This document shows, in pieces, positions 2,115-23,597 of a stretch of DNA of 64,000 bases. Source of the stretch: a virus (lineage: Duplodnaviria; Heunggongvirae; Uroviricota; Caudoviricetes); the IMG/VR virus record IMGVR_UViG_3300020202_000067, positions 17,335 through 81,334 of that record; one strand, given 5' to 3'. Positions within the stretch are counted from its first letter, which is position 1; each line of letters starts with the position of its first letter. Under the pieces are notes generated by a model. The model saw only the letters and a list, made by a program, of their open reading frames with translations. It searched no databases and was not told the DNA's origin. Made by a program: the position numbers and the translations under genes.

Positions 2115-2137
2115 TACTTCTTCATGGGAGAGAGTTT

Positions 2138-3004: not shown

Positions 3005-3013
3005 GGTTTTGAA

Positions 3014-4239: not shown

Positions 4240-7184
4240 TGGCAACTCCATTTCTTTCATCGATCAATTCTGGTGAATTCTCCCCGCGCATGGAAGCGCG
4301 GGTTGATTTCGAGCGTTACGCTAATGCGGCAAAATTGTGCCGCAATTTCATATTGTTTCCGCAGGGCGGCATCTCTCGTCGTCCTGGCACCAGATTTGTC
4401 AAGGAAGTTAAATCCTCTTCTCTATCTACAAAGCTCATCCCATTCGAGTTTTCTGAGGATGACTCTTACATCATCGAGGCTGGTAACAACTATTTCCGCT
4501 TTTATCGTCGTCAAGGAAGTCTCACTGTTGACGACACAGACGCAGCCGTCACAAATGGCACATTTGCCTCGAACATAACAGGATGGACGGACGCTTCGAC
4601 TGGCGGCGCTGCAATTGCTCATGACTCAACAAATCAACGTTTGCAATTGACTGGAACGTCAGGCGGTGTCGCCTGGGCTAGACAAACCATCTCGATTGGA
4701 GCCAGCCACACTGCAAAAGTGCACGTTCTGAAGTTTCGACTCGCCATTGCCGGTGGCGGGAAGATCGGTTTTCAAGTTGGCACTTCAAATACAGGATCTG
4801 AGGTTCTGAGCGAAATTCTCCTCGGAGAAGGAGAGCATTCAATCAGCTTCACTCCAGGCGCTACTTCGATCTCAATCCAATTTCGCAACACGAATTCTCC
4901 GGCACGCAATGGCTTCGTTGACAATGTTGAATTCATCGACAATGCAGCGCTTGAACTAGTCTCTCCTTATGCAACAGCAGACCTGGAAGATCTTCGTTAC
5001 TTCCAAGCTGCTGACGTTGTTTACGTCTGCCATCCAGATTATGCTGTTCGGAAGATCGAGCGCAGAGGGCATCGTAGTTGGTCCATTGTTCAAGCGTTCT
5101 TTACAGATGGCCCCTATCTTGAGACGCACAACGGCGATGATCTTGCAACTATGCAGCTCGTTTCCAACTCATTGTTCGAAAACGGGATGATAGGATGGAC
5201 CGACAATTCCACAGGCGATGGCTTCGTTGTATTCAATGAAGCTGGCAAATTTGCAGAGCTTGATCCTGGGACGACTGGCGGGACCGGGGTTGCCATACTG
5301 AGAACGAGCGCAACTGTTGTTACTAGCAAGAAACATGTCGCGCACATACTCGTGGTTGCTGCTGGACCAGTGACCGTCAAGCTCGGCAGCGCCGCTGGCG
5401 GCACGCAATATATTAACACGACGCAATATCCAGGCTGGTCGTCTTATGAGTTCACGACCTCCGGAACAACGTTGCATGCTGAATTTTCGCATAATGATTA
5501 TGACAAGGGCCGTGCAGGCATCGGCGGGTTTCAAGTTTACAGCGAGGACCATAGTCTTCTTGAAGCTAGTGCAACTACAGGATCCGTGACACTAACCGCT
5601 CTGGGCTTTTCTCCATTCACCTCAGCGGATGTCGGACGGCTGATTCGCATGGAATGGCCTGGACAAGAGGCTGGTTATGGAGTGATCACTGCTTATAGCA
5701 GCAGCACCTCTGTGACGCTGTTCGTGCTCAGAGCTTTAGCTTCAACGGCTCCAACTGAGTCATGGCGCTTTGGTGCTTGGGGTGGTGACCAAGGCTATCC
5801 AAAGGTGGTAGGGTTCTATGACGGACGATCTGTGTTTGCGAACACGGAAGCCAAACCCAACTCTCTGTGGATGTCGCAGTCAGGACAGATCGAGAATATG
5901 CGTCTTGATTCCTTCTCTGAAGGCGACCTAACAGCTCAGGATGATGATGCCATTTCAGTGACATTACGTTCTACAAAGATCAATCCAATTTTTTGGGTCA
6001 GTGGCCAGAAGAACTTGATGGTCGGCACTGCAGGCGGGCAGTGGGTCATTCGTTCCTCTGGAGCTGTGGTGACCCCCAGCGACATCTCTACCAAGCAGCA
6101 TGCTGCCGTGCCTTGCGCTGACACCAAGAATATCGAGATCAATCAAACCATTCTTTTCGCCGATCGCGCTCGCAGAGAGGTTCATGATCTTGGCTTCTCT
6201 TTGGAAGAGGACTCATTCCTCGCGACTGATTTGACGATCCTTTCAGATCATATGTTTACCTCTAAGCTGGAGGAGATGGTCTATCAGCGTAATCCGTATT
6301 CCATCATATGGTGCCGAAGAGAAGACGGCAGAATGGCGTCATTGAGTTACAACAAACAGCATCAAGTTCTTGGCTGGTCACAAACCGTTATTGGTGGATC
6401 ATTTGGTAGTGGAGACGCGGTTGTTGAAAGTGTAGCCGTCATCCCAGGAGCGAATGACGACACGCAAACGCACACTTCCGACGAGCGTAATGAATTGTGG
6501 ATGATCGTTAAAAGAACGATTAACGGATCAACCAAACGTTACATTGAGTTCATGGAATACTTCTTCGATGGTCCTTTGCGCGAAGATTACGACACGGAAG
6601 CCGAATGGCAAGCGGCAATGCGCACGCAACAGGAAGACGCCTTCTATGTTGACTGCGGTCTGACATATGACGGCTCTGCCACTTCAGTCATCACCGGCCT
6701 CGATCATCTTGAAGGGCAGACCGTTAGGATCTTGGCAGACGGAAAGATCCATCCAACAAGAATTGTTTCGTCTGGCTCCATTTCTTTGAATGAGCAAGTC
6801 ACCAAGGCGCAAGTTGGGCTTGGTTACAAATCACGTTATGAAAGTCTGAAGCTGGCACCGCCAAATATGGAAGGCGGGTCTGGTGTCGGCAAGGTGAAGA
6901 TTATCTCTGAAGTCGGGATCATTCTTCTTGACGCCACAACTTTCGATGTAACAACAGTTGAGTATGACGAAGAGCAGGGCCGTCGCCAGCACACGCTTTA
7001 TTCACAAGAATTCCTTCGCGACTACATGGACAGAGACGACGCCATTCCGCTTTTCTCCGGAGAGATCGCTCCGTCAACAGACGGCGTTTGGTCGCGCGAC
7101 TCACGCATTTATATCGAATGCGAACAACCTTTGCCGCTGACTGTTCTCGGCCTGGCTCCGCGCATGGAAGTAAGGGCTCAATAA
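4236..7184 (+). CDS. tail tubular protein B / nozzle (T7 gp12-like) with two inserted beta-sandwich modules
   Basis: 982 aa. The N-terminus GEFSPRMEARVDFERY..GGISRRPGTRFV is typical of gp12-type proteins. Inserts at nt 4545-4937 and 5154-5543 share a NGxFxxxxxGWTD start. Confidence 0.8.
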   Translation: MMATPFLSSINSGEFSPRMEARVDFERYANAAKLCRNFILFPQGGISRRPGTRFVKEVKSSSLSTKLIPFEFSEDDSYIIEAGNNYFRFYRRQGSLTVDDTDAAVTNGTFASNITGWTDASTGGAAIAHDSTNQRLQLTGTSGGVAWARQTISIGASHTAKVHVLKFRLAIAGGGKIGFQVGTSNTGSEVLSEILLGEGEHSISFTPGATSISIQFRNTNSPARNGFVDNVEFIDNAALELVSPYATADLEDLRYFQAADVVYVCHPDYAVRKIERRGHRSWSIVQAFFTDGPYLETHNGDDLATMQLVSNSLFENGMIGWTDNSTGDGFVVFNEAGKFAELDPGTTGGTGVAILRTSATVVTSKKHVAHILVVAAGPVTVKLGSAAGGTQYINTTQYPGWSSYEFTTSGTTLHAEFSHNDYDKGRAGIGGFQVYSEDHSLLEASATTGSVTLTALGFSPFTSADVGRLIRMEWPGQEAGYGVITAYSSSTSVTLFVLRALASTAPTESWRFGAWGGDQGYPKVVGFYDGRSVFANTEAKPNSLWMSQSGQIENMRLDSFSEGDLTAQDDDAISVTLRSTKINPIFWVSGQKNLMVGTAGGQWVIRSSGAVVTPSDISTKQHAAVPCADTKNIEINQTILFADRARREVHDLGFSLEEDSFLATDLTILSDHMFTSKLEEMVYQRNPYSIIWCRREDGRMASLSYNKQHQVLGWSQTVIGGSFGSGDAVVESVAVIPGANDDTQTHTSDERNELWMIVKRTINGSTKRYIEFMEYFFDGPLREDYDTEAEWQAAMRTQQEDAFYVDCGLTYDGSATSVITGLDHLEGQTVRILADGKIHPTRIVSSGSISLNEQVTKAQVGLGYKSRYESLKLAPPNMEGGSGVGKVKIISEVGIILLDATTFDVTTVEYDEEQGRRQHTLYSQEFLRDYMDRDDAIPLFSGEIAPSTDGVWSRDSRIYIECEQPLPLTVLGLAPRMEVRAQ

Positions 7185-7616
7185 ATGCGTACAGCCCAAT
7201 TTGAAATTGAGCACATCGATCAATTCAAGAATTTCGCAGGACAAGAGAACATTGTTGTTGGCGCCAAGACAGAAGACTTCATTCATCTGAAAGATGGCGG
7301 TGCGTCTTATACCATATTCAATGATGATGATATTCCAATTGGATGCGGCGGATTGATAGAATGTCACAAGTATCGCGCCCTGGCTTGGTGTCTCTTTCAA
7401 CGCACGAATGATCCTGTGTCATTTGTTTATATTCACAAGATCGTTTCCAGGGTTATCAGAGACAGCAATTATCCTCGCATTGAGGCCTATGTTAATCCGA
7501 TGCTGCTTTCCTCTGTTAGGTGGATCAAGCAACTCGGGTTCAAGCTCGAAGTCTCCTATTATCCTTATTTCTTTGCGGATGGCACTGGAGCTTCGCTCTA
7601 TGCCATTATGAGGTGA
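7185..7616 (+). CDS. GNAT-like N-acetyltransferase
   Basis: 143 aa. The C-terminal RIEAYVNPMLLSSVRWIKQLGFKLE resembles the RimJ/RimL-type GNAT core, but no clear Q/RxxGxG motif. Visibly AT-richer than its neighbours. Confidence 0.5.
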   Translation: MRTAQFEIEHIDQFKNFAGQENIVVGAKTEDFIHLKDGGASYTIFNDDDIPIGCGGLIECHKYRALAWCLFQRTNDPVSFVYIHKIVSRVIRDSNYPRIEAYVNPMLLSSVRWIKQLGFKLEVSYYPYFFADGTGASLYAIMR

Positions 7617-7622
7617 AGAAGA

Positions 7623-8222
7623 ATGGCAATGCTCACGATGGGAGCAACTGTTGCTAGCGGCGTTGTCGGCGTTCTAGGCGCTCTGCAGAAAGGCAAAGCT
7701 GATGCCTTCAATGCGCAAGTAGAAGCCGAGAACCGCGCAAGGCAAGCGGATGCGCAGTCTGAAGCCGACATCTTCAATGCAAAGGTTGCCAGGCAGCTCG
7801 CTGAGTCTGAAACGCGACAAGGCGCTGCCAATGCGAAAGATTACCGACGCACCCAAAGCGCCCGTGCTGCCAGTCGCCGCGCAATTGTTTCAGCGTCAGG
7901 TGTTTCCATGGAAGGATCCCCGCTGCTGGTTGATGAAGCGATCTTCCAGGAAATTGAATTTGGAGCACAACGCATTGCTTTTGATTCGATGACCAAGTCG
8001 TCTCGTGCCAGAAACGCAGCCTCACTACTCGAACGTTCAGCATGGCACAATAAGGAAACAGCGCGCATCGCGCGTGAGACTGGACGCGCTAGCGTTGAGA
8101 ACATCCGCAAGGCTTCTTATCTTTCTGCCCTAGGCAGAGGTCTGTCAGGCTTTCTTGACACAAGCAAGGCAATAAATGAAATGGCGACACAAGCAGCTCT
8201 TGGCGGCGGAGGAGGAGGTTAA
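7623..8222 (+). CDS. internal virion (ejection) protein, gp14-position
   Basis: 199 aa. Hydrophobic N-terminus, A/R/Q-rich helical body and a poly-G tail whose codons form the RBS of the next gene. Assigned by position. Confidence 0.55.
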   Translation: MAMLTMGATVASGVVGVLGALQKGKADAFNAQVEAENRARQADAQSEADIFNAKVARQLAESETRQGAANAKDYRRTQSARAASRRAIVSASGVSMEGSPLLVDEAIFQEIEFGAQRIAFDSMTKSSRARNAASLLERSAWHNKETARIARETGRASVENIRKASYLSALGRGLSGFLDTSKAINEMATQAALGGGGGG

Positions 8223-10354
8223 TGGCTAATGAGCTTTTGACGCCTGCTGGAATTCAACGTCCTGGTCATGGCCAGGACCCTGGCGTTTCTATGCGCCCAT
8301 CAACGGTCCTTCTTTCGCCTGTCAGAGACCCGATGGGTGATGCGCTCAATGAGTTTTCTAGAGATCTGTCGGGCATTGCTGCCACATTCAAAGAACTATA
8401 TAAAACTCGTCAGGACGCGGAAGACAGATCATTTGTTGACAAATATCAACTTGAGTACAATAAGCGCGTCACTCCTATTGAAACGGACGCGCTCAATGGT
8501 CCTGATTCCAGCAAGCCAGACTTTGTGAACAAGCTGGATCAGCGCCTCGCTGAGACGCAGAATTCATTAATGGAAGAGTTGCTATCCAGCGGGCAGTTCA
8601 ATCCGAGCAAGAATGGCAAGGAGGCTGCAATTCGTGCAGCTATGCAATTGCGCATTGCAGCGGCTAGGCGTTCTGCTGTAACTGCGCACAACCAACGCGT
8701 TACTAGAGTTGTTGATGAGGCAACAGCGAATGTTGGAGAAGTGGCAAGGGCTTCTGGAGCAAGTGGAGAGTTGGATGCTGGCATAGACCGAGTTGACTCT
8801 ACCATTAAGTCTCTTGAGCGCGTTCTGCCTCCGGACAAATTGCGTGAACTGCAAAAGACAGCGCGTGAGCAAGTGGTGGAGAGCGTTGTTCGCTCTCATA
8901 TTGAGAGAGGCAATTTTGCTGCCGCTCGAATGCTGCTCGATCGCAATCGCGGCTATGCCGCCAACACGACGGAAGGTGCCATTGCCCAAGCTGCGGCCAA
9001 GCACGGAGTTGATCCAGCCTACCTTGTTGCGGCAGCGCGTGCTGAGTCTTCACTCGATCCTGGGGCGAAGCCAAGGGTCGATCCTGCAACTGGCAAGCGC
9101 CCGTCGAATGCGGCTGGCATTTTCCAAATGGTTCCGGAAACAGCCAAGCAATTCGGTCTTCCAGAAGACGCGTCCACAGCGCCGGTAGAGCAACAGATTG
9201 AAGCTGGCGCAAGGTTCGCGGCGCTCAATAAGAAGGTATTGCAGCAAGCGCTCAAGCGTGATCCAACGCCTGGCGAAATGTATCTTGCGCACTTCCTCGG
9301 TGCTGGTGATGCTGTTAAGGTGCTGACTGCGCCAAAGGATCTTAGCGGCAGAGGCGTATCTCTAGACGGCTTGGTCGGCAGCAAATCAATCGCTGCCAAT
9401 AAAGCCATCTTAGATGGCAAGACGACAGACGACGTTATTGAATGGGCGAACAGAAAAATGCTGGCAGCAGGTGCTGGCGGTTCAGCCAACTTCATCAAGG
9501 AAGACACGCGCATTGCATTGCTGTCCCAGCTTGAAACGCGACAGCACCAAATGGATGTTCGCGCTAGAGAGGAAGCAAATCGGCAGACCAAGCTGATTGG
9601 CGAAGCCTTCTTGAAAGAAGCATTCACACAAGCTAACAATGGAAGGCTCAGCCCAGATTATGTCGAGCAAATCAAGCCTTGGATTTCACCGACAGAATAC
9701 AAAGGTCTGCTCTCGACCTTGGGCAAAGAAGACAATATCGATGATCAAGCTGCGATCGTGGATCTGACCACGCGCATAGACACTGAAGATCCAAATGAGT
9801 TCATGACGCGTGCAACGGACTGGATGAACAAAGGCAAACTTAAGACCGGCACCTACACTGCGATGGTTCAGCGCAATCGCACAGCGTTCAGAGACGATCG
9901 TCCTGCCAGTCCGTTCAAGTCCGGTCGTGAACTTGTCAGCACCTCTTTGGATCCTGGCGCGCTGAGCACAGCCGGACCAGAGGCTACGCAACATATGCGC
10001 GTAGCCAGAGCAAATGCATTGATTGAATTTGACCAATGGATCGAAGCCAATCCGCAGGCCAAGCGCGAAGACATCATCAATGAGGCGCAAAACATTGTGC
10101 GTCGTTATGAGCCTGTGGCGCAAGAACGCATGAAGATGGCTATTGGACTTTCTCGCTATTTCGGAGACAAGTCGCGCAATGCCATTACGATGAAAGAAGT
10201 AGAAGATGCAGAATTGGCTCTGCATCGGGACATTGAGTCGGGAAGGCTCACGCCAGCGCAGCAAGGCTTTGAAATTCGCAAACTAAAGAACTGGCGCGAG
10301 ATCATTGCGCGTGAAACCGCGCTTAAGGCGCAGCAGCCTGGACAAAGGAAATAA
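8222..10354 (+). CDS. internal virion protein with lytic transglycosylase (SLT) domain, gp15-position
   Basis: 710 aa. AESSLDPGA...AAGIFQMVPETAK...YLAHFLG matches the SLT E-S / GLMQ / AYNxG pattern. Confidence 0.8.
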   Translation: MANELLTPAGIQRPGHGQDPGVSMRPSTVLLSPVRDPMGDALNEFSRDLSGIAATFKELYKTRQDAEDRSFVDKYQLEYNKRVTPIETDALNGPDSSKPDFVNKLDQRLAETQNSLMEELLSSGQFNPSKNGKEAAIRAAMQLRIAAARRSAVTAHNQRVTRVVDEATANVGEVARASGASGELDAGIDRVDSTIKSLERVLPPDKLRELQKTAREQVVESVVRSHIERGNFAAARMLLDRNRGYAANTTEGAIAQAAAKHGVDPAYLVAAARAESSLDPGAKPRVDPATGKRPSNAAGIFQMVPETAKQFGLPEDASTAPVEQQIEAGARFAALNKKVLQQALKRDPTPGEMYLAHFLGAGDAVKVLTAPKDLSGRGVSLDGLVGSKSIAANKAILDGKTTDDVIEWANRKMLAAGAGGSANFIKEDTRIALLSQLETRQHQMDVRAREEANRQTKLIGEAFLKEAFTQANNGRLSPDYVEQIKPWISPTEYKGLLSTLGKEDNIDDQAAIVDLTTRIDTEDPNEFMTRATDWMNKGKLKTGTYTAMVQRNRTAFRDDRPASPFKSGRELVSTSLDPGALSTAGPEATQHMRVARANALIEFDQWIEANPQAKREDIINEAQNIVRRYEPVAQERMKMAIGLSRYFGDKSRNAITMKEVEDAELALHRDIESGRLTPAQQGFEIRKLKNWREIIARETALKAQQPGQRK
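8975..9325 (+). other. SLT lytic transglycosylase domain
   Basis: aa 252-368 of the 710-aa protein. Putative catalytic Glu lies in the AES motif. Confidence 0.7.
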
Positions 10355-10358
10355 TTGA

Positions 10359-13300
10359 ATGGCTCCTCCGATTAAGACACCGTTCCCGGTTGCTGATTAC
10401 GCTGATCAAAATCCGACGACCATGGACATCCTCAAACAGAACGAGGAACAGATCGAATTGGCTAATGAAGGGCTAATTCCGCCGAAGAGCATGGCGGAGG
10501 AAATTGCTCCACAATTAGATGAGCTGCGTGCTTCTGAAGTCCGTCAGGCTTCACTGACTCCTGAGGACATTTTCATTCCTCCAAGCAATCCAAAAGAAGA
10601 CGACATCGCCTCGCAATATATTCAGATGGCGCAAGCACGCGACAATGACTCTGCCATTGAAGAGTTCAAGGAGCGTATGCGTGCGCGAGCGTCCACAATA
10701 GCTCCTAATGGACGACCGATGCTGCCAAATGCAGATGGGTCTGTCTCAACAGAAGAGAGCATCACGATAACAGATCCACGCATCAATGGCGGAGCACCAA
10801 CGAACATTCCTAGCATTTGGGGAGGACAGCGTCCTCCTTATAATGCTGGAACGCCTGAAGCGGAAAATTGGGCTGTTGAGAAAGCACTTGAGTCCAAGCA
10901 GCGCTTCCAATCGTATCGCTCAATCGAAGATGCTGTACAAGCCGCGCGTCAGCGCTCTTTGGAGTTAGGCAAAGCCATTGAGCGTGGCCGCCTTGAACAG
11001 CGCAGCGAAGTGAAGAAAGCTACCGACACCATCAATGCGATGGAGTCATTGATCGCGGGCAAGCCTATTAAGTCCGTGACAGAAGCGCAATCCATGACTG
11101 AACTTTTCGACATCATCATGGAACATGCTCAGAAGACTAATTGGTCTGATGCGCCTGGCGCTGTTGCCAAGGATATTGGCAAAGGCTTCTTCGTTGAAGG
11201 CGTTCCGCAGGCTGTCGGTGGCGTCAATCTGGCAGTCAAGAATACTTCACGCGCGTTGGCCGGTCTGGCTGATTGGATGACAACGAATGTTGGCGGTGAG
11301 ATCCCCGTTCCGTCAACAGGTAATAAGAAACTTGACCAAGCAATACAGCGCCCACTCGATTTCATCACCGAGTTGCTGCCTGGCGATGAAGGCATTAAGA
11401 AGGCGGAAACATTTACAGGCATCTTCATTAAGGAAGGTGCGCGCTTCCTCACCGGCTTCATCCCGCTGTTCCGTGCAGGTAAGGCGGCCGGAGCTGGCAA
11501 TATAACCACATCTATCGCTGCCGGCAGTCTGACTGATGCGATCACGCAAACGCCTGAAGAGCCGAACCTTTCTAATCTGATTGAGAAGGTTCCGCCGCTC
11601 AGAAACCCGGTGACGGAGTTTCTTGCCACAGACCCCAATGATCCTGAAGCCCTCAATCGCCTGCGTCAAGGCATTGAGGGCGCTGGCATGGGCGTTCTCA
11701 CAGAAGGTTTGCTCTGGGGAATACGCGCATTGGCCAATGCCCGTAAGGCAGTGCCAGAGCTTGAAGCGCAACGGCAATTGCATGGCGAGGTTGGTGACGG
11801 AACGGTTGTTGCTGCAACCAAGGACGAGCCTTATACCGCAGTTGGTGGAGCCAGTGCTAAAAACCCCTTCGTGCTCGACCTGACCTCAGAAGTGGCAAGA
11901 GAGGAAACTGAGCGTCGCCTGCGGGCGATCTTGACGGGACAAGCTGATGGGCCGGTGATAAAGCCTTCAACACGCCCGCTACAGGATGATTCCTTTGGCA
12001 CACGTATTGAAAAGGAAGAGGTGTTAGGCCTCATCGAGCGCAAGGCGCGGCCAGAAGAGATCTCTGCCCATCCGCTGATTCGCCGCGCAATGGAGCGACA
12101 GAAACGAGATCTTGAGGCGCCACAGATCAGGATTGAAGACATCACTCCTGAACATCGCGCGCAGCGCAAATTTGACTTTAATGGCGAGGAGGTCGTCGGT
12201 TACGACAAGGCCGTGCCGCGCCTTGCGGCTAATGCAGAAGCTTATGCTGGCTCTAACGGCGCCGCTGCGAATAAAGAAGCCATTATCCTCCTCGGCCCAC
12301 CTGCCGCTGGCAAAACAACCATTGGCGACAAGCTCGCGCGTGAGCTCAGATATGCCGTTGTTGATGCAGATGATGTGAAGGCCACGTTGCCCGAATATGC
12401 CGGTGGCGTAGGATCGACGCGCGTGCATCCGGAAAGCACGTTGATCAATGCCATGGTTCTTGAGGAGCTGGCGCGTTCCGGCAAGAACATGGTGATTCCG
12501 AAGCTCGGTCACGGCTCAGAACCAATAGTTGCCTTAGTACAAAAACTCAAGGAGCTTGGATACACGGTTGATGTCGTCAATGTTCGGATGGACGCTGAAG
12601 AAAATTACCGTCGGATGATCTCTCGGTTCATTCACACTGGCCGATTGATTGAGGAGAACTACTTTAAGCAGATCGGAGACCTTCCGACACAGACTTATGA
12701 ACGCCTCAAGAGAGAAGGATTGGTACGTGAAGCAGCCAACTACGATAACTCAACAGCAGCTCCAAAGCGCCTCGAAGCCTCAGAGCGGCTCGCAGCCGCA
12801 ATCGAGAGATCCGGAGGAGGTGGAGACGCAGCTTCAATTGGAGGCGCTGGAGCGCGCCAAGCGCCCCCGCAAATAGAGCGTCTGCGACAGGCCGCTGAGC
12901 CTGTTTACAATGACATGCTGGCGCAGCTCCGCGCCACTGGCATGAAGGAGGAAGAGGCTCTCGCCAATGCTGCTGTCGTGGCTGCACGCTATGCGGCGCG
13001 CGCCGAACGGCTAGGCACCGGCAAGACGGCGATGGATCTCTACAAGGAGTCAGGCCTGCGTGTCGAGCGGTCTGACGCTCCTCCGTCATCTGAGCGCTTC
13101 ATCGTCAATGCAGATGAACCGATGCCTTTCCGCCCAACCAAGGAGCAGACGCTTGAACAGCGTCGTGGTTGGTTTGGCACCGGTTACTGGATCAAAGATG
13201 GCAAACTGCACAAGATTGAAGAAGGCGCACTCGGTCCGCATGGCGATCATGATGGGTGGATCTCCATTGCCGATAATGCCAACAAGCTTGGAGTTGACGA

Positions 13301-16300
13301 AAAGAAATCTGCGGCTTTTCAAATTGCTACATATAATTTCGCGGATGCAAGCAAGAACAAGTGGGTTGACAAATTCTTCAAGAAGCATCCAGAATATGCA
13401 CAGGCCGCAGATGAAGGTACGCCGCTTCAAGACTTTGATTTCTTCGATAGCGACTTCAAAAAGTTTTTCGGAATGGAAGCGCACGAAGCGCTTGCTTGGC
13501 GTCCTGAAGGCATGTTCCGCATGCGCAAATGGCCTGATGGCCAACTCACCATCGACAATATTGATGCCATCAAGGACACTCGCAAATTCATTGAACAAGT
13601 CATGGCGCAGGAGCCGGAACTTCTCAATGGCGTCAAGAGGATCAGTGTCGCAAGCGCCAAGGATGATTCATACATCGATCTGACCGTTGAGCAATTTCTT
13701 GATGGCAAGTGGAAAGGCAAAGGCTACTCCTTCGAACAACGCGGCGCCGCTCCTCCTTTCTTCTCCGTCATAGACCGGGCCGTCGGTGGCGCCTCCTTCG
13801 ACAAGGGCTCGGCGGGCCAGTGGCTGGGGCTGTTGAAGAATACCGCAGGCGTCAAGCAAGAAGAGATCAAGTGGCGTGGCATCGACAAGTTCTTGGAAGA
13901 CCGCAAAGGCCAGATGGTCACCAAGGCAGAGATCGAGGAATGGTTGCGCATCTCTGAGGTGAAGATCAAGGAGATCAGGAAGGACAACGAAAAAGCTGGC
14001 TTCATCGATGAGGATGAAGTCATGGCTGAAGCTGACAGGATTTATCGGCGCTGGTCCAGTGGTGAAAATGTAACGGCCGACTACAGAGAAGTTGAGGCTG
14101 GCCCGAACATTGCCTTCGAAGTTATTGACAATCGCGGCATTGTTATTGAGAGGGTTTATTCTCCTGAAAGTGCTAGAGCGATCGCTGAAGATTTCAACCG
14201 TGCAATCAATGAACAAGATTTTGGTGCACTGGTAGATTGGAGCCAGATCGCTGCAGAACAGATTGCAAAGTCTGATGCAGCAGAAGTAACCCGCCACGGC
14301 ACTCACATCCTCCCCGGCCCAAACTCCAAGTACCGCGAGATCTTGCTGACTCTACCTGACAATGATCGTGTTGTTCCAAATCCTGCAAAAAGGGTTTGGT
14401 GGGTAGATGTTCCGGACAGTCCGGCACCGGCCATGGCCTTCAGCGAGGAACAGGTCGCACAAATTAGGTCTCGCTATCCGGAAGGAACTAATCTTCAGGT
14501 CAGGGAAGAAAACTTCACCGGCGTTGACGTCGCTGACAGCGGCGGCACCTTCCGTGTTGATGATCATTGGCACGAAGACAACGTGCTCGCGCATGCGCGC
14601 GTCACGGAGCGTGAGCTCGGCACCGGGCAGAAAGGCTACCAGTGGGTCAACACTGGTTCAGGCAACAAGAGTCAGATCTTTCCGTCATTGGAAGCGGCTA
14701 ACGGTTACTATTGGTCGCTGCCTGACAATCTGAAGTCACAGATCAAGCTTGCGCATGTCGAAGACCGCAAGGTCAAGACTCTCTTCATCGAGGAGATCCA
14801 GAGCGATTGGCATCAGCAAGGTCGCGAGCGCGGGTACAAGGAGCCGAATGCTAAAGCGGAGCATGAGCGCTTGACGCAGGCCCACAAAGATCTCATCCCG
14901 GAGATCAACAGAGTCATAGAGGAAAATGATCGTCTTGGATTTGATACCGTTCACGAGGCCAGAGGCGCGCTGTGGCGTGATGGAGTTGAGAGATGGGAAT
15001 TCAGCAAGCCAGAAGATCTTGAGATTGCCAAGAAGTACGTTGATGCTCTGAATGCGCTCAGAGAATTTGAAGCCAAGAAATCTGACAAAGCGGTTCCTGA
15101 CGCCCCGTTCAAGAAGAACTGGCATGAGCTTATGCTCAAACGCATGATCAAGCTCGCGGCTGATGAAGGCTATGACCAGATCGCATGGACCACGGGCAAG
15201 CAGCAGAATGATCGCTGGTCGCTGTCGCGTGAGCTGAAGCGCATTGAGTATGACGAAGCGACCAAGCAACTTCGCGCCACGCCAAAGAATGGACGTGAAG
15301 AACTGCACTGGCGCGATGTCGATGGCGAACGTCTGAAGGAGATCGTAGGCGCTGAGATGGCGCGGAAAATCCTGGAGACGCAACCTTCGTCAGTGAGGCA
15401 GGTTGCTCAGATCGAAAACGACATTGTCAAGTATGTCCGGGAATTCACTGGAGATGACAACTTCACCTTTCCTGCCGCCAATGAGCCTGGCAAATGGAGC
15501 ATTATAACTAATCTTGAGAGAAACAAGCCTGCGATGAAACGGCTTGTGCAAGAGTGGCAAGATGCTTCCAATGGCCGCCTTGTTGGCAAACGCATTCTCG
15601 AAGGAGAAGACCTTGAGCTAGGCGGCCAAGGCATGAAGTCGTTCTACGACCGCATGCTGGTCAACGCTGCCAATGATCTCGGCAAGCCGCACAAGGCGCA
15701 GGTGAAGCAGGGCGAGGTTGTTACGGGGCAGAGCCTCGAAACGGTGTTCAGAGGAGAAGCTCCGACTGCAGCGAAGTTGAATGAAGTGGTTGAAGACTTG
15801 CTAGACAAGCAGTCACAAGGCATTCTCACTGGCTTCTCCAGATCCGAAATTAAACATATTGCAATAATTGCAGACGCGATGGAGGGCGGGAAAACATTCG
15901 ATCAAGCGATGCAAGTGCATGGACTTGGGTCAACATACGCTCTCATGCAGAAAGTCGGTTACGATGTGGACATGCGGCCTGCCGTTAAAACCGAACCGGT
16001 CCACGTCCTAGAGATCACGCCTGAACTCCGCCGCACGGCGCGTGAGGATGGCTTTCGGTTGTTCCAGAACCCGCGTGGGTGGGAGGATGCACCCGGCGGG
16101 CCAGATTACTTTGGTCACCCAAAAGGCATCATCGACATCAAGAGCAATGAGGCTGTTGTCAAGCTGTTCCGCACGGCTGACGCTTCCACCTTCCAGCATG
16201 AAGCGGGTCACCTGTTCTTCTTCGAGCTCATGCGCGACGCCGCAATGGATGCAGCGCCCAAGCAGCTCAAGGACGACCTCGACACTGTCTTCCGCTGGCT

Positions 16301-19300
16301 GGGCGTGCAGGACGGCACCCAGCTCACCCGTGCGCACCATGAGCAATGGGCCAAGGGCTTCGAGCGCTACTTGGCAGAGGGCAGCGCGCCTTCACCCCAG
16401 CTCCAGTCCGCCTTCGAGCGCTTCAAGACTTGGCTGATTGAAATCTACCGGTCACTGACCTCCATTGGCGACAAGGAGATCACCGACGAGGTCAGGGGCG
16501 TGATGGATCGGCTGCTGGCCACTGACCCAGAATTGGCCTTGGCCGGGAAGGCACCGCTTGTTGGCCCAGCCGGGCTAACGGGCGACATCCTCGGTGCCGT
16601 GGTGCCCAGGTTGCAGGAGGCCGGGTTCGATGGCCTAGTGACCAAAAGCGTGGGCGGGAAGACCCGCGCCATGGCTCTTCCTGCCCAGCTAGCCGGGAGG
16701 GACAAGCTCGGCGCAGCCATGGAGGCCACCGAAACGGGCGTGCCCTCACAGGTAGTGGCCCAGGGATTGGTCGGCAGCGCGGAGGACGCCGCGAGCCGCG
16801 CAGGCATTGCGCGCGTGCTGCGGACCGATGACAGCCCGGTCGGGGCGACCGGCGAAGGTGCTATAGCACCGGGACCAGATGTCTATGTCAACTTCGGCCG
16901 TATCAATGAACCTGACGACGTCAAGCAGGTTATCCGCGACCTGGCAGACGCCTTCAAGGGCGAGATCAATGAAGCACGGCGCGGTGTGCAATCCAATGAG
17001 GAGACAATCAGACTGGCGGATCGCCTTGGCATGGGGGTTGACGAGCTGCTGCAGCGTCAGAAAGGTCAGCCCTTCAATGCTGAGCAAGCGCTAGCGGCAC
17101 GGCGGCTGTTGAACACGTCGGCAGAACAGCTTCTCGGCTTCGCGGAAAAAGCTGCGCTGCCGACAGCAACGCTTGCCGACCAATACAATTTCCGCCGCAT
17201 GCTCGCCGTGCATCAAGCGATCCAGACTGAAGTGATTGCGGCAAGAACAGAGACCGCGCGTGCACTTCAGTCCTGGGCGATCCCGGCTGGTGGCAATGTC
17301 GAGATGGCACGCAACATTCAACAACTCATCGATGGAGCTGGTGGCGCAAAAGTGACGCAAGAGCTGGCCAAGCGCATGGCCATTCTCAAGGCGCAAGGTT
17401 TGCCGCCTGCTGCCATTGACACTATGGTCAAACGTTCCTGGGCGGCTGTTTCTATGGACATGGTTAAGGAAGCCTTCGTCCTTGGCCTTCTGTGGAACCC
17501 CAAAACGCATGTCGCCAACTTCGCTTCCAATCTTGTCACCGCTGCGCAACAGGTTTACGAGCGTTCAGCCGCAAGAGCGATAGGAGACCTTCTCGGCACA
17601 GCAGTCAGTGGTTCACGCGTGGTTGATGGAGAGGCCATCGCCATGATGTATGGCTGGGTGACGTCGCTCAAGGACGCATTCCGCCTGGCAGGACGCGCTG
17701 CCGTCTATGGTGAAACAGGCCAAGCCATACCTGGCTCCAAGATGGACGAGCGCATTGGCGCGATCTCTTCTCGACACATTGCTGAATCACGTGGTTACTC
17801 TGCTGTTGAGACTCAACAGTTCGTCAGCTCAACAGCAGGGCGCGCCATCGACTTCATGGGAACAGTTGTACGTTTGCCAGGCAATGCTCTGGCAGCAGGC
17901 GACGAATTCTTCAAGACTATCGGCTATCGCATGGAGTTGCATGCACACTCTTTGCGGCAGGCGACAGACGAGGGCTATACTGGACCAGACTTGTGGAAGC
18001 GTATGATGGAGATCGTCAATGATCCTCCTGAGCACATTCGCATCGCGGCCGCCGACGCGGCGCTTTACGCGACATTCCAATCTAAGATGGGAGAGATCGG
18101 CACAGCAATCAGCATGGCGCGCAATGCTGGCAGCTACAATCCAACTTTCGCAGTGCTGCCATTCGTAAAGACGCCTACCAATATTCTGCGCTACACTTTC
18201 GAGCGCACGCCGCTTGCATTCCTTGTGAAGCGCTGGAGAGACGACATCGACGCTGGCGGCGCGCGGCGCGATCTGGCATTGGCTCGCATGTCAACTGGCA
18301 CTGCCATCATGGCTGTTGCTATGGACTTTGCAGCCAATGGACAGATCACCGGCACCGGTCCGCGCGAGCGCGGCCGCAAGGAAGCATTGATGCGCGACGG
18401 CTGGCAGCCATCCAGCGCTCTTGTTGATGGAAAATACTACTCCTTCAACCGTGGCGATCCACTTGCGATGCCGTTCACTGTCATGGGACAAGTCGCCGAG
18501 ATCATGCGTTCCAAGGATCTTGCACCAGAAGACTTTGATCAGCTTCAAGAGATCATGGGCGCGGCCATAGGCATCATGTCAACGACTGTTGTTGACAAGA
18601 CTTACTTCCAAGGCATTTCGCAGATCATCATGGCGATTGAGAGCTCAGAGAAAGGTTCTCAAGCTGCAGCCAATTGGATGAACCGCCAGGTCGGCGGCTT
18701 TGTGCCATTCTCTTCTGCGCAAGGAGTGGTGAAGCAATTCACGGATCCTGTGCAGCGAGAAGTCAACTCGATGTGGGATGGCATTCAGAACCGCCTGTTC
18801 TGGATGTCAGAAAATTTGCCCCCTGTTCGTGATCTCTGGGGCGAGGAGCGTAAGCCGGAAGAAGTGTTCGGTAAGGCTTATGATGTTCTGTCGCCAGCTC
18901 AGGTCACCAAACAGAAGGGCTCGCCCATTGATCAAGAGATCATTCGTCTTGGCGGCTCCATTGAGCGCATCAAGAAGAAGGGCGAATTCATGGGGGCTGA
19001 TGTCAACTTTTATGAATGGCCGAAGGTGTATGACGAATACGTGCGCCTCGCCGGCAATGAGCTCAAGCACCCTGCCTGGGGCGTGGGGCTCAAGGATCTA
19101 TTGAATCAGGTTGTTTCTGGCAAGCATGAGTTGTCTGAAGTCTACAACTTCATGTCGAATGGACCTGAAGGCGGAAAGATGGCATGGCTCAAGAATCAGG
19201 TTTCAGCTTATCGCCGTTTGGCGCAACAAGAGATTATGAACTCAGACAAGTTTCCTGAATTTGTTAATTACGTCAATACGCGCAGACAGCAACGGCAGGA

Positions 19301-19343
19301 GTTGAAGATGCCGCCCGAAATTCTCGAACAGATGAGGCAGTGA
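10359..19343 (+). CDS. giant polyvalent internal virion/ejection protein (gp16-position)
   Basis: Uninterrupted 2994-aa ORF directly after the SLT protein. Contains a P-loop zeta-toxin-like kinase segment and an HEAGH metallopeptidase-type motif. C-terminal third is long and hydrophobic/helical. Confidence 0.85.
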   Translation: MAPPIKTPFPVADYADQNPTTMDILKQNEEQIELANEGLIPPKSMAEEIAPQLDELRASEVRQASLTPEDIFIPPSNPKEDDIASQYIQMAQARDNDSAIEEFKERMRARASTIAPNGRPMLPNADGSVSTEESITITDPRINGGAPTNIPSIWGGQRPPYNAGTPEAENWAVEKALESKQRFQSYRSIEDAVQAARQRSLELGKAIERGRLEQRSEVKKATDTINAMESLIAGKPIKSVTEAQSMTELFDIIMEHAQKTNWSDAPGAVAKDIGKGFFVEGVPQAVGGVNLAVKNTSRALAGLADWMTTNVGGEIPVPSTGNKKLDQAIQRPLDFITELLPGDEGIKKAETFTGIFIKEGARFLTGFIPLFRAGKAAGAGNITTSIAAGSLTDAITQTPEEPNLSNLIEKVPPLRNPVTEFLATDPNDPEALNRLRQGIEGAGMGVLTEGLLWGIRALANARKAVPELEAQRQLHGEVGDGTVVAATKDEPYTAVGGASAKNPFVLDLTSEVAREETERRLRAILTGQADGPVIKPSTRPLQDDSFGTRIEKEEVLGLIERKARPEEISAHPLIRRAMERQKRDLEAPQIRIEDITPEHRAQRKFDFNGEEVVGYDKAVPRLAANAEAYAGSNGAAANKEAIILLGPPAAGKTTIGDKLARELRYAVVDADDVKATLPEYAGGVGSTRVHPESTLINAMVLEELARSGKNMVIPKLGHGSEPIVALVQKLKELGYTVDVVNVRMDAEENYRRMISRFIHTGRLIEENYFKQIGDLPTQTYERLKREGLVREAANYDNSTAAPKRLEASERLAAAIERSGGGGDAASIGGAGARQAPPQIERLRQAAEPVYNDMLAQLRATGMKEEEALANAAVVAARYAARAERLGTGKTAMDLYKESGLRVERSDAPPSSERFIVNADEPMPFRPTKEQTLEQRRGWFGTGYWIKDGKLHKIEEGALGPHGDHDGWISIADNANKLGVDEKKSAAFQIATYNFADASKNKWVDKFFKKHPEYAQAADEGTPLQDFDFFDSDFKKFFGMEAHEALAWRPEGMFRMRKWPDGQLTIDNIDAIKDTRKFIEQVMAQEPELLNGVKRISVASAKDDSYIDLTVEQFLDGKWKGKGYSFEQRGAAPPFFSVIDRAVGGASFDKGSAGQWLGLLKNTAGVKQEEIKWRGIDKFLEDRKGQMVTKAEIEEWLRISEVKIKEIRKDNEKAGFIDEDEVMAEADRIYRRWSSGENVTADYREVEAGPNIAFEVIDNRGIVIERVYSPESARAIAEDFNRAINEQDFGALVDWSQIAAEQIAKSDAAEVTRHGTHILPGPNSKYREILLTLPDNDRVVPNPAKRVWWVDVPDSPAPAMAFSEEQVAQIRSRYPEGTNLQVREENFTGVDVADSGGTFRVDDHWHEDNVLAHARVTERELGTGQKGYQWVNTGSGNKSQIFPSLEAANGYYWSLPDNLKSQIKLAHVEDRKVKTLFIEEIQSDWHQQGRERGYKEPNAKAEHERLTQAHKDLIPEINRVIEENDRLGFDTVHEARGALWRDGVERWEFSKPEDLEIAKKYVDALNALREFEAKKSDKAVPDAPFKKNWHELMLKRMIKLAADEGYDQIAWTTGKQQNDRWSLSRELKRIEYDEATKQLRATPKNGREELHWRDVDGERLKEIVGAEMARKILETQPSSVRQVAQIENDIVKYVREFTGDDNFTFPAANEPGKWSIITNLERNKPAMKRLVQEWQDASNGRLVGKRILEGEDLELGGQGMKSFYDRMLVNAANDLGKPHKAQVKQGEVVTGQSLETVFRGEAPTAAKLNEVVEDLLDKQSQGILTGFSRSEIKHIAIIADAMEGGKTFDQAMQVHGLGSTYALMQKVGYDVDMRPAVKTEPVHVLEITPELRRTAREDGFRLFQNPRGWEDAPGGPDYFGHPKGIIDIKSNEAVVKLFRTADASTFQHEAGHLFFFELMRDAAMDAAPKQLKDDLDTVFRWLGVQDGTQLTRAHHEQWAKGFERYLAEGSAPSPQLQSAFERFKTWLIEIYRSLTSIGDKEITDEVRGVMDRLLATDPELALAGKAPLVGPAGLTGDILGAVVPRLQEAGFDGLVTKSVGGKTRAMALPAQLAGRDKLGAAMEATETGVPSQVVAQGLVGSAEDAASRAGIARVLRTDDSPVGATGEGAIAPGPDVYVNFGRINEPDDVKQVIRDLADAFKGEINEARRGVQSNEETIRLADRLGMGVDELLQRQKGQPFNAEQALAARRLLNTSAEQLLGFAEKAALPTATLADQYNFRRMLAVHQAIQTEVIAARTETARALQSWAIPAGGNVEMARNIQQLIDGAGGAKVTQELAKRMAILKAQGLPPAAIDTMVKRSWAAVSMDMVKEAFVLGLLWNPKTHVANFASNLVTAAQQVYERSAARAIGDLLGTAVSGSRVVDGEAIAMMYGWVTSLKDAFRLAGRAAVYGETGQAIPGSKMDERIGAISSRHIAESRGYSAVETQQFVSSTAGRAIDFMGTVVRLPGNALAAGDEFFKTIGYRMELHAHSLRQATDEGYTGPDLWKRMMEIVNDPPEHIRIAAADAALYATFQSKMGEIGTAISMARNAGSYNPTFAVLPFVKTPTNILRYTFERTPLAFLVKRWRDDIDAGGARRDLALARMSTGTAIMAVAMDFAANGQITGTGPRERGRKEALMRDGWQPSSALVDGKYYSFNRGDPLAMPFTVMGQVAEIMRSKDLAPEDFDQLQEIMGAAIGIMSTTVVDKTYFQGISQIIMAIESSEKGSQAAANWMNRQVGGFVPFSSAQGVVKQFTDPVQREVNSMWDGIQNRLFWMSENLPPVRDLWGEERKPEEVFGKAYDVLSPAQVTKQKGSPIDQEIIRLGGSIERIKKKGEFMGADVNFYEWPKVYDEYVRLAGNELKHPAWGVGLKDLLNQVVSGKHELSEVYNFMSNGPEGGKMAWLKNQVSAYRRLAQQEIMNSDKFPEFVNYVNTRRQQRQELKMPPEILEQMRQ
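12264..12758 (+). other. zeta-toxin-like P-loop kinase domain
   Basis: ILLGPPAAGKTT (nt 12294-12320 encodes GPPAAGKTT), followed by VVDADDVKATLPEY. Resembles the Walker A plus D-x-D-xFR..HPxY layout of zeta/AAA_33 kinases. Confidence 0.6.
16197..16211 (+). other. HExxH motif (HEAGH) in giant protein
   Basis: FQHEAGHLFFFEL at about aa 1947. This context is reminiscent of metallopeptidase domains described in phage polyvalent proteins. Confidence 0.45.
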
Positions 19344-19347: not shown

Positions 19348-19773
19348 ATGGTCGCATACAATAAATTTCAAGTCTTTGTTGAGAACATCGCCGAGGGCGT
19401 TCACAATCTCGGAGCTGACACTCTCAAGGTGATGCTCTCCAATACAGCGCCGGTTGCCACCAACACAATCAAGGCGAACATCACAGAGATTTCCGCTGGC
19501 AATGGATATACCGCTGGCGGAACACAAGCGACAATTTCATCTTCATCGCACACAACCGGCACCTACAAGCTGGTTCTTGCCGACGTTGTGTTCACAGCAT
19601 CAGGTGGGACTATTGGTCCGCTGCGTTATGCAGTGCTCTACAATGACACGCCAACTTCGCCTGCGGACCCATTGATCTGCTGGCACGACTATGGCAGCTC
19701 TATCACGTTGCAGGATACCGAAACTTTTACCTGGGATGCGGATGCAACCAATGGCATCTTGACCATTGCATGA
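19348..19773 (+). CDS. virion structural protein (tail-associated, by position)
   Basis: 141 aa, T/S/G/A-rich beta-type sequence. First gene after the ejection proteins. Confidence 0.55.
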   Translation: MVAYNKFQVFVENIAEGVHNLGADTLKVMLSNTAPVATNTIKANITEISAGNGYTAGGTQATISSSSHTTGTYKLVLADVVFTASGGTIGPLRYAVLYNDTPTSPADPLICWHDYGSSITLQDTETFTWDADATNGILTIA

Positions 19774-20024: not shown

Positions 20025-20247
20025 GTTCGACGAACTTGTCCGTAAGCGCGATGAAATCCGCGCCATTTCTACGCCAATGCGTGAAACTCGTGACAAGTTC
20101 AAGAATGAAATGCAAGCTCGTCTCAGGCAGATGGATGATGAAATCAGGAAAATTGAAGAGCCGCTCTATGAACTAGAAACAGATATCGGCTCTCTCGCTC
20201 GCGCTGTCGGCGGGCGCTACATGAGTGATGGGCGCGGCAATAAATAA
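19993..20247 (+). CDS. hypothetical coiled-coil protein
   Basis: 84 aa, R/E/K-rich helical. Stop overlaps the next start (TAATG). Confidence 0.5.
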   Translation: MSALKSRLRAEFDELVRKRDEIRAISTPMRETRDKFKNEMQARLRQMDDEIRKIEEPLYELETDIGSLARAVGGRYMSDGRGNK

Positions 20248-20858
20248 TGCCGGCCTTCCAGCCAGTCAGCGGCGCTCCTGTTGCAGATCCGAACCTCTAT
20301 GTAAGAGGCCTGCTGGCTATAGAGACAGGCTTCTTCAATCTCAATGGCCAAGCAGTCACACTCAGAAAAGGCTCCAAGGTCCAGGCAGGAGCTGGATCTT
20401 ATGCGCTGACCGGGAATGAAATTGCTTTCACCATCTCAACTTCTCAAGCGGGCATCAATCAGGTGCTCCTCACTGGATCGACATCAAACAGGGTTTACGG
20501 GTTCACAATGACAACCAATTTCGTCATGACTGCCGGAGACACAAAGACGCTCGTGATCTCTGTCAAAGACGCTTCCGGTAACCCAGTCAATATTACAGAC
20601 GCAAGCATCAAGTGGCAGGCAGGACGGAGCTTTGGTAAGGCGTCATCCATATCAAAAGCCACTGGCGGCTCTGGAATTTCGATTACGGATGCGGCGAATG
20701 GAGTGTTCACAGTCACACTCAATCCAAGCGATACAGAAAGTCTGAAGGGAACTTTTTATCACGAAGCTCAGGTTACTGGATCTGACAGTGCAATCTCTAC
20801 TGTAATATCTGGAACGATGAAGATCAACCCAGCATTGATCGAGTCAACAGCGACCTAA
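20247..20858 (+). CDS. tail fibre/spike-like protein 1
   Basis: 203 aa. N-terminus MPAFQPVSGAPVA is shared with the next gene. One GSYALTG unit; Ig-like T/S-rich C-terminal part. Confidence 0.6.
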   Translation: MPAFQPVSGAPVADPNLYVRGLLAIETGFFNLNGQAVTLRKGSKVQAGAGSYALTGNEIAFTISTSQAGINQVLLTGSTSNRVYGFTMTTNFVMTAGDTKTLVISVKDASGNPVNITDASIKWQAGRSFGKASSISKATGGSGISITDAANGVFTVTLNPSDTESLKGTFYHEAQVTGSDSAISTVISGTMKINPALIESTAT

Positions 20859-21550
20859 TGCCTTCATTCACTCCAGTATCAGGAGCGCCAGTCGCAACAG
20901 CCGCATTTGGCGGCACTGTCAATCACTACATCATAACAATCGATGCTGGATCTTACACACTTTCAGGACAAGCTGTTGATTTAGATTTCGGCCGCAAGCT
21001 TACGCTCGGTGCAGGGTCTTACACACTCACCGGTCAAGCGATTATTTTCGACGTCAAGATGCCGGCAGAGGCTGGCAGCTACACACTCACCGGCCAAGAT
21101 GTTGATCTCGATGCTGACAGAAAGATCTATCCGGATGCCGGAGCTTACACACTCACCGGTCAAGCGATTATTTTCGACGTCAAGATGCCGGCAGAGGCTG
21201 GCAGCTACACGCTCACCGGCCAAGATGTTGATCTCGACTTCGGCCATAAGATCACGATTGGAGCTGGCAGCTACACGCTCACCGGCCAAGATGTTGATCT
21301 CGATGCTGACAGAAAGATCTATCCGGACGTTGGCAGCTATGCACTCACCGGCAAGGATGTTGCTTTTGTATTCAGCTTAGACACCGACAATGGCCTTTAC
21401 ATAGTGCTGCACGGGGAGCAAGAGAGCGAGTTGGAGTTGGAAGGTCTGTTGCAAACTTCAATCAATCTTCATGGCAGACTCGAGACAGAAGAAGATCTGG
21501 ACGCGTTGAAAGTTGGCGACAGCAACCTCACCGGTGGTCTGAAGGCTTAA
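20858..21550 (+). CDS. tail fibre/spike-like protein 2 with seven GSYTLTGQ repeats
   Basis: 230 aa. N-terminus MPSFTPVSGAPVA. Seven ~21-aa units G[SA]Y[TA]L[ST]G..[VI].[FL]D. Confidence 0.6.
   Translation: MPSFTPVSGAPVATAAFGGTVNHYIITIDAGSYTLSGQAVDLDFGRKLTLGAGSYTLTGQAIIFDVKMPAEAGSYTLTGQDVDLDADRKIYPDAGAYTLTGQAIIFDVKMPAEAGSYTLTGQDVDLDFGHKITIGAGSYTLTGQDVDLDADRKIYPDVGSYALTGKDVAFVFSLDTDNGLYIVLHGEQESELELEGLLQTSINLHGRLETEEDLDALKVGDSNLTGGLKA
20948..21373 (+). repeat. in-frame tandem coding repeats (60-66 nt units; 126-bp near-perfect duplication)
   Basis: About 21017-21112 and 21143-21238 are nearly identical (one mismatch seen). 21264-21326 repeats 21073-21135. Confidence 0.85.
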
Positions 21551-23439: not shown

Positions 23440-23597
23440 GTCGTACTCTCCGGCAGGCCAAGGGCCTTGTTGACTTCCTCTCTTGTCAGCAACCGCTCAA
23501 TCGGTAGCTCATCGCACTTGCGCGTTAGCGGCCCGCTCAAGTTTGCTATGACAGCCATGCAGCTTCCGATCCGTTTGACTTTTCTGGGAAAGATCAT
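23436..23597 (-). CDS. small hypothetical protein (53 aa, not in track)
   Basis: MIFPRKVKRIGSC...LGLPESTT. ATGA overlaps with the SNF2 stop and the next start. Confidence 0.4.
   Translation of the reverse strand: MIFPRKVKRIGSCMAVIANLSGPLTRKCDELPIERLLTREEVNKALGLPESTT

Follow-up and report, generated by a model that had tools for sequence, protein, structure and literature searches.

What could the largest internal virion protein of a short-tailed phage be doing with a P-loop kinase and an HExxH motif inside its chain? The question is raised by IMGVR_UViG_3300020202_000067, an IMG/VR record of a virus of the class Caudoviricetes, of which we analyzed positions 17,335 to 81,334 as one stretch of 64,000 nucleotides (the window; coordinates refer to it unless another contig is named). 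Here, 10359..19343 on the plus strand is one open reading frame (ORF) with an ATG start, encoding a protein of 2994 amino acids (aa). An earlier reading of the DNA without database searches (the sequence-only reading) had taken this ORF for an ejection protein in the position of T7 gp16, carrying a zeta-toxin-like kinase and an HExxH module and lying beside a separate SLT protein. We find it probable that the protein is a gp16-type ejection protein turned polyvalent effector carrier, whose cargo would be ejected and act in the host, the functions of its parts being predictions.

A polyvalent protein on a gp16-type chassis

Judged by its sequence, the 2994-aa protein belongs to the "polyvalent proteins" that Iyer et al. 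(2017) described computationally (PMC5512222), a class to which the sequence-only reading had rightly compared it. Its chassis is of gp16 type ("internal virion protein D"). Seven parts emerged when it was mapped by BLASTP, tblastn and profiles, with approximate shares of 1,130 aa for gp16-like carrier, 800 aa for a module with a GNAT-like fold, 170 aa for a zincin-like module and 280 aa (aa 831-1111) for a largely orphan region (Table 1). The first carrier segment is matched in tblastn, from about aa 288-350 on, by "internal virion protein D" of Roseobacter, Desulfovibrio and uncultured marine phages, and in BLASTP by the collected proteins P0002, P0003, P0010 and P0013. The second, C-terminal segment (gp16-C) matches phrog_6651, "internal virion protein", over aa 2381-2859 (E 3.6e-45) and has tblastn matches in 106 phage records, the best-covering of which are mostly annotated as internal virion protein (D) (Pelagibacter, Roseobacter, P60, Syn5).

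Gene order agrees with this assignment. The giant ORF lies in the gp16 position because genes for the capsid and tail tubular proteins and ORFs of gp13, gp14 and gp15 size precede it on the same strand, and the separate SLT protein is found where it had been placed, with SLT (PF01464) at aa 254-332 of the gp15-like protein (34.3 bits, cut-off 21.3). Relatives of the giant protein on contigs L001 and L005 also sit within a capsid, tail and internal-core gene block, and P0006 is preceded by the same block, made up of genes for 148, 197 and 821 aa, of which the 821-aa product has an SLT domain.

We found that fusion of cargo to this carrier recurs. The collected set holds 31 gp16-C-bearing proteins, the query included, most of them with cargo: zeta-like kinase, ART-PolyVal (3 proteins), GGDEF, SNF2/ResIII, MuF_C or LPD3. 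P0002, P0205 and P0231 have the query's domain order at about 44% identity or less. Of 75 protein matches, most are 1,700-4,600 aa long and carry LPD22, ART-PolyVal, MuF_C, LPD38, PBECR or InPase; what they have in common with the query is aa 1112-1906, aa 1906-2075 or both.

The statement of the sequence-only reading that about 2000 aa match nothing recognizable did not hold. Only the approximately 280 aa of aa 831-1111 are largely orphan, with 0 Pfam, PHROG or NCBIfam matches, and the one stretch of them that recurs is aa 842-914, present ahead of the kinase in P0002, P0205 and P0231. The first 244 aa, an extension absent from ordinary gp16-like proteins, have two partial matches, one of which (P0071) is named "LPD1 domain-containing protein" by one source. 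The ORF had 0 megablast matches in 50,697 phage records, Pfam scans in windows of about 250-700 aa gave outside the kinase only faint noise (Ferritin_2, DUF6074, DUF7623, YaiO), and whole-protein phmmer matched nothing in PDB beyond designed repeat proteins and, weakly, an adenylate kinase. G+C content peaks at 0.62 (12759-13208) and 0.64-0.66 (16359-17108), compared to about 0.52-0.55 elsewhere in the ORF; recent transfer was rejected as the source of these peaks, which coincide with Gly/Ala/Pro-rich inter-domain linkers and not with module boundaries.

Cysteine is absent from the ejection block

The giant, gp14-like and gp15-like proteins, 3,903 aa together (7623-19343), contain 0 cysteines. 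The 24 other ORFs examined in the window average 0.86% cysteine, which gives a probability of about 6e-12 for none in 2994 aa. Zero cysteines were also counted in T7 gp15 and gp16 (L004), in 14 of 16 related fusions of kinase and gp16, in 116 of 120 homologues in which the approximately 800-aa module stands alone, and in all 8 tested ejection-block neighbors on L005, L007 and L008. Ejection of the whole chain is supported by these counts, since the giant protein lacks cysteine as do T7 gp15 and gp16 and nearly all relatives. Such an absence fits selection on chains that cross the tail and the oxidizing periplasm unfolded, for cargo as much as for carrier, and near-total absence of cysteine may be a sequence marker of capsid-ejected proteins.

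The kinase domain belongs to a zeta-superfamily clade without GTXR

The two segments that the sequence-only reading had quoted are both present in the translation: aa 636-800 (nt 12264-12758) include ILLGPPAAGKTT and VVDADDVKATLPEY, and nt 16197-16211 translate to HEAGH. GxxxxGK[ST] occurs once in the 2994-aa protein (about 0.11 copies expected by chance) and HExxH likewise once (about 0.05 expected), and both motifs lie inside domains kept across many homologues and are thus not chance matches. Profile searches assign the P-loop segment to the zeta superfamily, as had been proposed, rather than to a generic NTPase or adenylate kinase family. Pfam Zeta_toxin scores 58.1 bits over aa 637-790 (cut-off 22.3) and the next family, AAA_33, 39.9 bits (cut-off 27), and a five-sequence profile searched against PDB has zeta toxin 1gvn_B (E 9.5e-6) and PezT 2p5t_B (1.6e-3) as its top kinase matches of that length. 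No curated NCBIfam cut-off was reached, the top kinase matches there covering the P-loop only.

Walker A is GPPAAGKT (aa 646-653, including K652), and the further key residues are D669/D671, K674, H690, E692, S693, R752, R756 and R762. In the alignment with 1gvn_B, VVDADD falls on VIDND, so that D671 corresponds to zeta D67, and R756 to R158. K652 and D671 are invariant in 150 subfamily members, in which K674, H690-x-E692-S693, N710 and P714-x-V/L-G717 are also invariant.

It is improbable, in our estimate, that this kinase is a canonical zeta/PezT toxin that phosphorylates UDP-GlcNAc, blocks MurA, and by weakening the wall aids DNA entry or later lysis. That possibility draws on the rank of Zeta_toxin in Pfam and of zeta and PezT in PDB, with the catalytic Asp and one Arg aligned, and on the same role having been proposed for zeta-like kinases in polyvalent proteins by Iyer et al. 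(PMC5512222). However, zeta EGTGRT, which holds the GTXR motif (G117-T121) required for binding of UDP-GlcNAc (UNAG; PMC6362051), aligns to PKLGHG, with P-x-V/L-G found subfamily-wide, and zeta E100 aligns to Ala. The replacement of GTXR makes canonical zeta activity unlikely, and with it the UDP-GlcNAc activity implied by the sequence-only reading. Other substrates have precedent in the family, which includes AvrRxo1 (an NAD kinase) and ng_zeta1 (which acts on the 4'-OH of several UDP-sugars), and the few molecules injected would scarcely be enough to exhaust an abundant precursor in the course of one infection cycle. We conclude from the conserved residues that the domain is predicted to be an active zeta-superfamily phosphotransferase, with a substrate other than UDP-GlcNAc likely.

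A word-indexed search with the kinase gave only 3 relatives; exhaustive representative search revealed the family, with 1010 clusters at E<=1e-30 and 3529 at E<=1e-10, almost none of them annotated. Among the top 150 members, 57 are at least 1500 aa long and 27 are shorter than 500 aa. The clade is mostly embedded in proteins of 1,000-6,900 aa (representatives P0199-P0345), one of them 6,889 aa long. In the 50,697 deposited phage genomes the kinase has only distant relatives, in Bacteroides phages, in haloviruses (where the annotation is "zeta toxin") and in the minor head protein of PSS2; an annotation as internal virion protein does not occur among them. No antitoxin-type match was found in the neighboring ORFs, antitoxins being too divergent for such scans to exclude an epsilon or PezA type. 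Identification of the 228-member Zeta+MuF_C cluster (P0045-like) with the gp47 family of Stx phages was tried and dropped, as tblastn found no such phage.

A conserved module of about 800 aa with a GNAT-like fold

The module at aa 1112-1906 has 1087 homologues at E<=1e-3, a very large family to which neither Pfam nor PHROG attaches a function. The majority are hypothetical proteins of 600-1000 aa in which the module stands alone and no Pfam domain is present. Invariant in the family are PGGENYRE, NxLAHxR, EExQSDWHQxGR, PDAPFKKxWHEL, GYDxIAxTTG and GGEGMKGFYD. An AlphaFold2 (AF2) model of the module (pLDDT 78) has a GNAT-like alpha/beta fold, and from the order of secondary-structure elements its core appears to lie at about aa 1315-1650, with large insertions. 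Where GNATs have the acetyl-CoA pyrophosphate-binding loop, after strand 4, the strand of the module is followed by the invariant WHQxGRxxGY, which differs from the canonical Q/R-x-x-G-x-G/A. The module has no Pfam match, a profile of it had 0 matches against PDB, and hhalign of its core against the GNAT domain of P0017 and against an E. coli RimI sequence was not significant. The invariant motifs and the GNAT-like fold together suggest that the family is an enzyme.

Contigs of other phages place the stand-alone form among virion genes. On L002 (10001-13057) a stand-alone homologue lies between P22-type portal and coat genes. On L007, a T7-like contig of 34.7 kb, the module gene (7001-9430) is flanked by an ORF of 558 aa, which occupies the gp15 position, and by a homologue of gp16-C that matches query aa 2173-2829 (E 5e-42); compared to the single chain of the query, this is a fusion/fission relationship, which ties the module to the ejection apparatus. 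L008 (7001-9013) also carries the module as a separate gene. A conserved ITPELR...G-F-x-L-F-Q ends the module (aa ~1878-1906, nt 15990-16076), directly before the HExxH module, and terminates many stand-alone homologues as well; it could be a docking or cleavage signal.

A zincin-like module at the junction of cargo and carrier

The HExxH module noticed by the sequence-only reading proved to be conserved, with about 42 homologous segments in other polyvalent proteins. In a 27-sequence alignment, H1947, E1948 and H1951 are invariant, as are the two glutamates E1995 and E2002. An AF2 model (pLDDT 76) shows two strands, then a helix that starts with HExxH, then further helices. The module has weak matches to zincin folds and no curated model match, and neither Pfam MPTase-PolyVal nor any LPD model matches the 2994-aa protein; Iyer et al. 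linked the metallopeptidases (MPTases) of polyvalent proteins to the zincin group (PMC5512222).

The module precedes the start of gp16-C by 61-136 aa in 14 of the 14 gp16-C proteins that have it, and it is absent from all gp16-C-bearing proteins shorter than 2100 aa. Cleavage at the junction of cargo and carrier is proposed because this distance is fixed, and we infer that the linker at aa 2076-2165 is a candidate processing junction.

The position of the module would fit any processing role, and the data are equally compatible with processing before packaging and after ejection. One alternative is that the inserted domains, instead of being injected effectors, do their work in the cell that makes the virions or in assembly, with HExxH serving, for example, as a maturation protease that trims the chain ahead of packaging or in its course, and the kinase and GNAT-like module acting late or being removed. 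DdrB of phage P1, which is processed and then put into heads (cited in PMC5512222), is a precedent. We hold this to be unlikely, since the cargo and its stand-alone homologues among ejection genes are as free of cysteine as the carrier, which would be expected if they are ejected, since enzymes fused to a packaged protein are costly if discarded, and since a whole polyvalent protein is present in phi24B virions (bioRxiv 10.64898/2026.04.10.717836).

Proposed mechanism and its weighing

In the effector-carrier reading that we favor, the phage would be one of roughly 80 kb with a T7-like virion module. Its carrier segments (aa 245-546 and aa 2166-2994) would bring the giant protein together with the gp14- and gp15-like proteins in the core of the capsid and, going by homology and gene order, would take it out through the tail at infection. 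The approximately 1,550 aa between them (kinase, orphan region, GNAT-like module and zincin-like module) would be cargo. The whole chain would leave the capsid unfolded, with which the total lack of cysteine is consistent, and the cargo would end in the cytoplasm, because the kinase needs ATP and the GNAT-like core, if a true acyltransferase, needs acyl-CoA as well; the C-terminal part of T7 gp16 is cytoplasmic after ejection (PMC8954989). The HExxH module may then cut near the junction of cargo and carrier or otherwise process the polyprotein, and the freed enzymes would modify host molecules at the onset of infection, before phage gene expression. A virion of T7 holds about 4-6 copies of its protein (PMC8954989), and such a number makes a low-abundance target more plausible than a bulk metabolite. 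The kinase would probably act on a hydroxyl of a small nucleotide-type substrate or on another low-abundance target, UDP-GlcNAc being unlikely.

Several points weigh against this reading. The gp16-C family has no detectable similarity to T7 gp16 (hhalign probability 0.15%), so the T7 topology is transferred by analogy; ejection proteins are very poorly conserved, which agrees with such a result (PMC8954989). At the copy number of T7, the effect on any metabolite pool would be slow. The zincin module is absent from 17 of the 31 gp16-C proteins, most of which still carry cargo, so release by that module cannot be general. Presence in the virion, ejection, cleavage and enzyme activity are all predictions from sequence.

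There is also a slim chance that the P-loop domain acts as a kinase of polynucleotides or nucleotides (PNK, or AAA_33-like), on nucleic-acid 5'-OH ends or (d)NMPs, with possible roles in repairing RNA damage inflicted by the host or in processing the end of the entering genome. AAA_33 passes its Pfam cut-off, there are weak matches to the PHROG "polynucleotide kinase" and to Pnkp1 (E 0.37), and T7 gp16-C binds DNA (PMC8954989), so that the domain would adjoin the entering DNA. However, Zeta_toxin scores 18 bits above AAA_33, zeta toxin leads in PDB by three orders of magnitude over PNK-type kinases, and we saw no ligase or phosphatase partner domain in the 2994-aa protein.

That the ORF is an artefact, a chimeric assembly or genes joined by sequencing error, is suggested by its metagenomic origin and by the occurrence of the approximately 800-aa module as a separate gene in related phages, but it is barely credible, because a 44%-identical relative (P0002, 2644 aa) has equal domain order and neighbors on another contig (L001, 82.7 kb), P0205 and P0231 repeat the architecture, the identical 2994-aa protein is recorded in JGI, Logan and ENA on at least 2 contigs (30.9 kb in Logan; the longest 81 kb), and a 9-kb stop-free frame cannot arise by chance.

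Implications

Ejection proteins of short-tailed phages are mostly viewed as a transient conduit for DNA. If the effector-carrier reading is true, the largest of them is also a vehicle for enzyme injection, and a whole clade of uncultured 35-83-kb phages delivers ready-made enzymes (kinases, acyltransferase-like proteins, ADP-ribosyltransferases, nucleotide cyclases) before phage gene expression, the point at which the defences of the host have to be disarmed. For biochemistry, two large families that lack annotation are flagged, the GTXR-less zeta-superfamily kinases and the cysteine-free GNAT-like module of about 800 aa, and absence of cysteine as a marker of ejection can be checked cheaply from sequence alone.

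More tentatively, gp16-type ejection proteins might be a general modular delivery chassis, in which cassettes (kinase, GNAT-like module, ART, GGDEF and SNF2 helicase among those seen) are spliced between or ahead of the carrier segments and injected into the cytoplasm as the DNA enters. In the largest versions a zincin would cut the cargo free, the GTXR-less kinases would have a substrate other than UDP-GlcNAc, and the GNAT-like family would form a second large class of injected modifiers; we regard this extension as possible and somewhat doubtful. One possibility for the substrate of the GTXR-less kinases is NAD-derived or cyclic-nucleotide immune signals, which would make the kinase an injected counter-defence enzyme.

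Genomic context

Table 1. Features of the window (nucleotide positions), from the virion genes through the parts of the 2994-aa protein to the replication genes.
Feature	Position	Strand	Basis or remarks
Major capsid protein, T7-type	508-1404	+	Pfam Phage_capsid_2
Tail tubular A and B	3631-7184	+	
gp13-like small ORF, 143 aa	7185..7616	+	Position and size (T7 gp13 138 aa); phrog_4177, function unknown; opens internal-core block
gp14-like internal virion protein, 199 aa	7623..8222	+	phrog_418 "internal virion protein", E 2.9e-8; T7 gp14 196 aa; 0 Cys
gp15-like internal virion protein, 710 aa	8222..10354	+	T7 gp15 747 aa; PHROG transglycosylase matches; 0 Cys
N-terminal extension, aa 1-244	10359..11090	+	Partial matches only to N-termini of large proteins P0070, P0071
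gp16-N-like carrier segment, aa 245-546	11091..11996	+	tblastn, BLASTP
Zeta-toxin-superfamily P-loop kinase, aa 600-830	12156..12848	+	Pfam, PDB profile
Linker (Gly/Ala-rich), helical piece aa 842-914, largely orphan aa 915-1111	12849..13691	+	
Conserved ~800-aa module, aa 1112-1906	13692..16076	+	GNAT-like alpha/beta core inferred at ~aa 1315-1650
HExxH zincin-like metallopeptidase module, aa 1907-2075	16077..16583	+	H1947, E1948, H1951, E1995, E2002
Ala/Gly/Pro-rich linker, aa 2076-2165	16584..16853	+	G+A+S+P 0.42; GC 0.64-0.66
gp16-C-like carrier region, aa 2166-2994, and stop codon	16854..19343	+	phrog_6651, tblastn
Helicase	23594-25063		
Topoisomerase-like	28319-29242		
DNA polymerase	40089-42929		
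Primase	59165-61474		

No function could be assigned to the three ORFs (219, 288 and 205 aa) that separate the capsid gene from tail tubular A at 1420-3631; the corresponding interval of L001 holds a PhyH-type dioxygenase. A 141-aa ORF (19348-19773; phrog_644, function unknown) lies 4 nt 3' of the giant gene, whose product it could serve as chaperone or partner; an ORF of equal size also follows the giant gene of L001. Further downstream, ORFs of 203 and 230 aa (20247-21550) have weak matches to Ig-like or adhesin-type domains (Big_1, Invasin_D3) and may be fibre or decoration proteins. The replication genes lie within 22000-62000, mostly on the strand opposite to the T7-like virion module, and no ORF of the size of a T7-type RNA polymerase was seen within the window. 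At about 81 kb the source contig has an unusual size for a phage whose virion module is T7-like, and despite that module the genome is not that of a classical autographivirus.

Comparison with known systems

Polyvalent proteins, their zeta-like kinases and their processing zincins were predicted by Iyer, Burroughs, Anand, de Souza and Aravind in 2017 (PMC5512222), and the 2994-aa protein resembles them as a giant polypeptide with disparate enzymatic domains that is encoded among late virion genes. Its zeta-toxin-like kinase and zincin-like HExxH module both have counterparts in that paper, and its homologues carry LPD22, ART-PolyVal, MuF_C, LPD38 and InPase. It differs in that its chassis is of gp16 type and not MuF, portal, DarB/DdrB or N4 virion RNA polymerase (vRNAP), and in that its approximately 800-aa module is, as far as can be told, not the RimI-like GNAT of the paper, in which gp16 and "internal virion" go unmentioned. 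Our literature search found no paper tying polyvalent proteins to gp16-type ejection proteins.

Like T7 gp16, the query is the last and largest gene of a gp13-14-15-16 block and is free of cysteine. Unlike T7 gp16, it is 2994 aa long rather than 1318 aa, with a cargo insert of about 1,550 aa and an N-terminal extension of 244 aa, and its system has SLT on the gp15-like protein, whereas the T7 type has it at the N-terminus of gp16. With zeta and PezT the kinase shares the P-loop phosphotransferase fold family, Walker A, the catalytic Asp and lid arginines, but it lacks GTXR, is embedded in a structural protein and forms a distinct subfamily.

The vRNAP of N4 and gp47 of phi24B are of similar scale, at about 2,800-3,500 aa, and are expelled from a podovirus capsid at infection, whereas the query is known from genes alone. 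N4 vRNAP has been reported with zincin-like domains (PMC5512222), and gp47 is a 2811-aa polyvalent protein found in virions by proteomics (bioRxiv 10.64898/2026.04.10.717836). The carriers are unrelated to that of the query, and the cargo is RNA polymerase in N4 and LPD5/LPD1/LPD38/MuF-C in gp47. What is new here is a chassis of gp16 type, a kinase clade without GTXR, a family of GNAT-like modules and a cysteine signature, with all functions as predicted.

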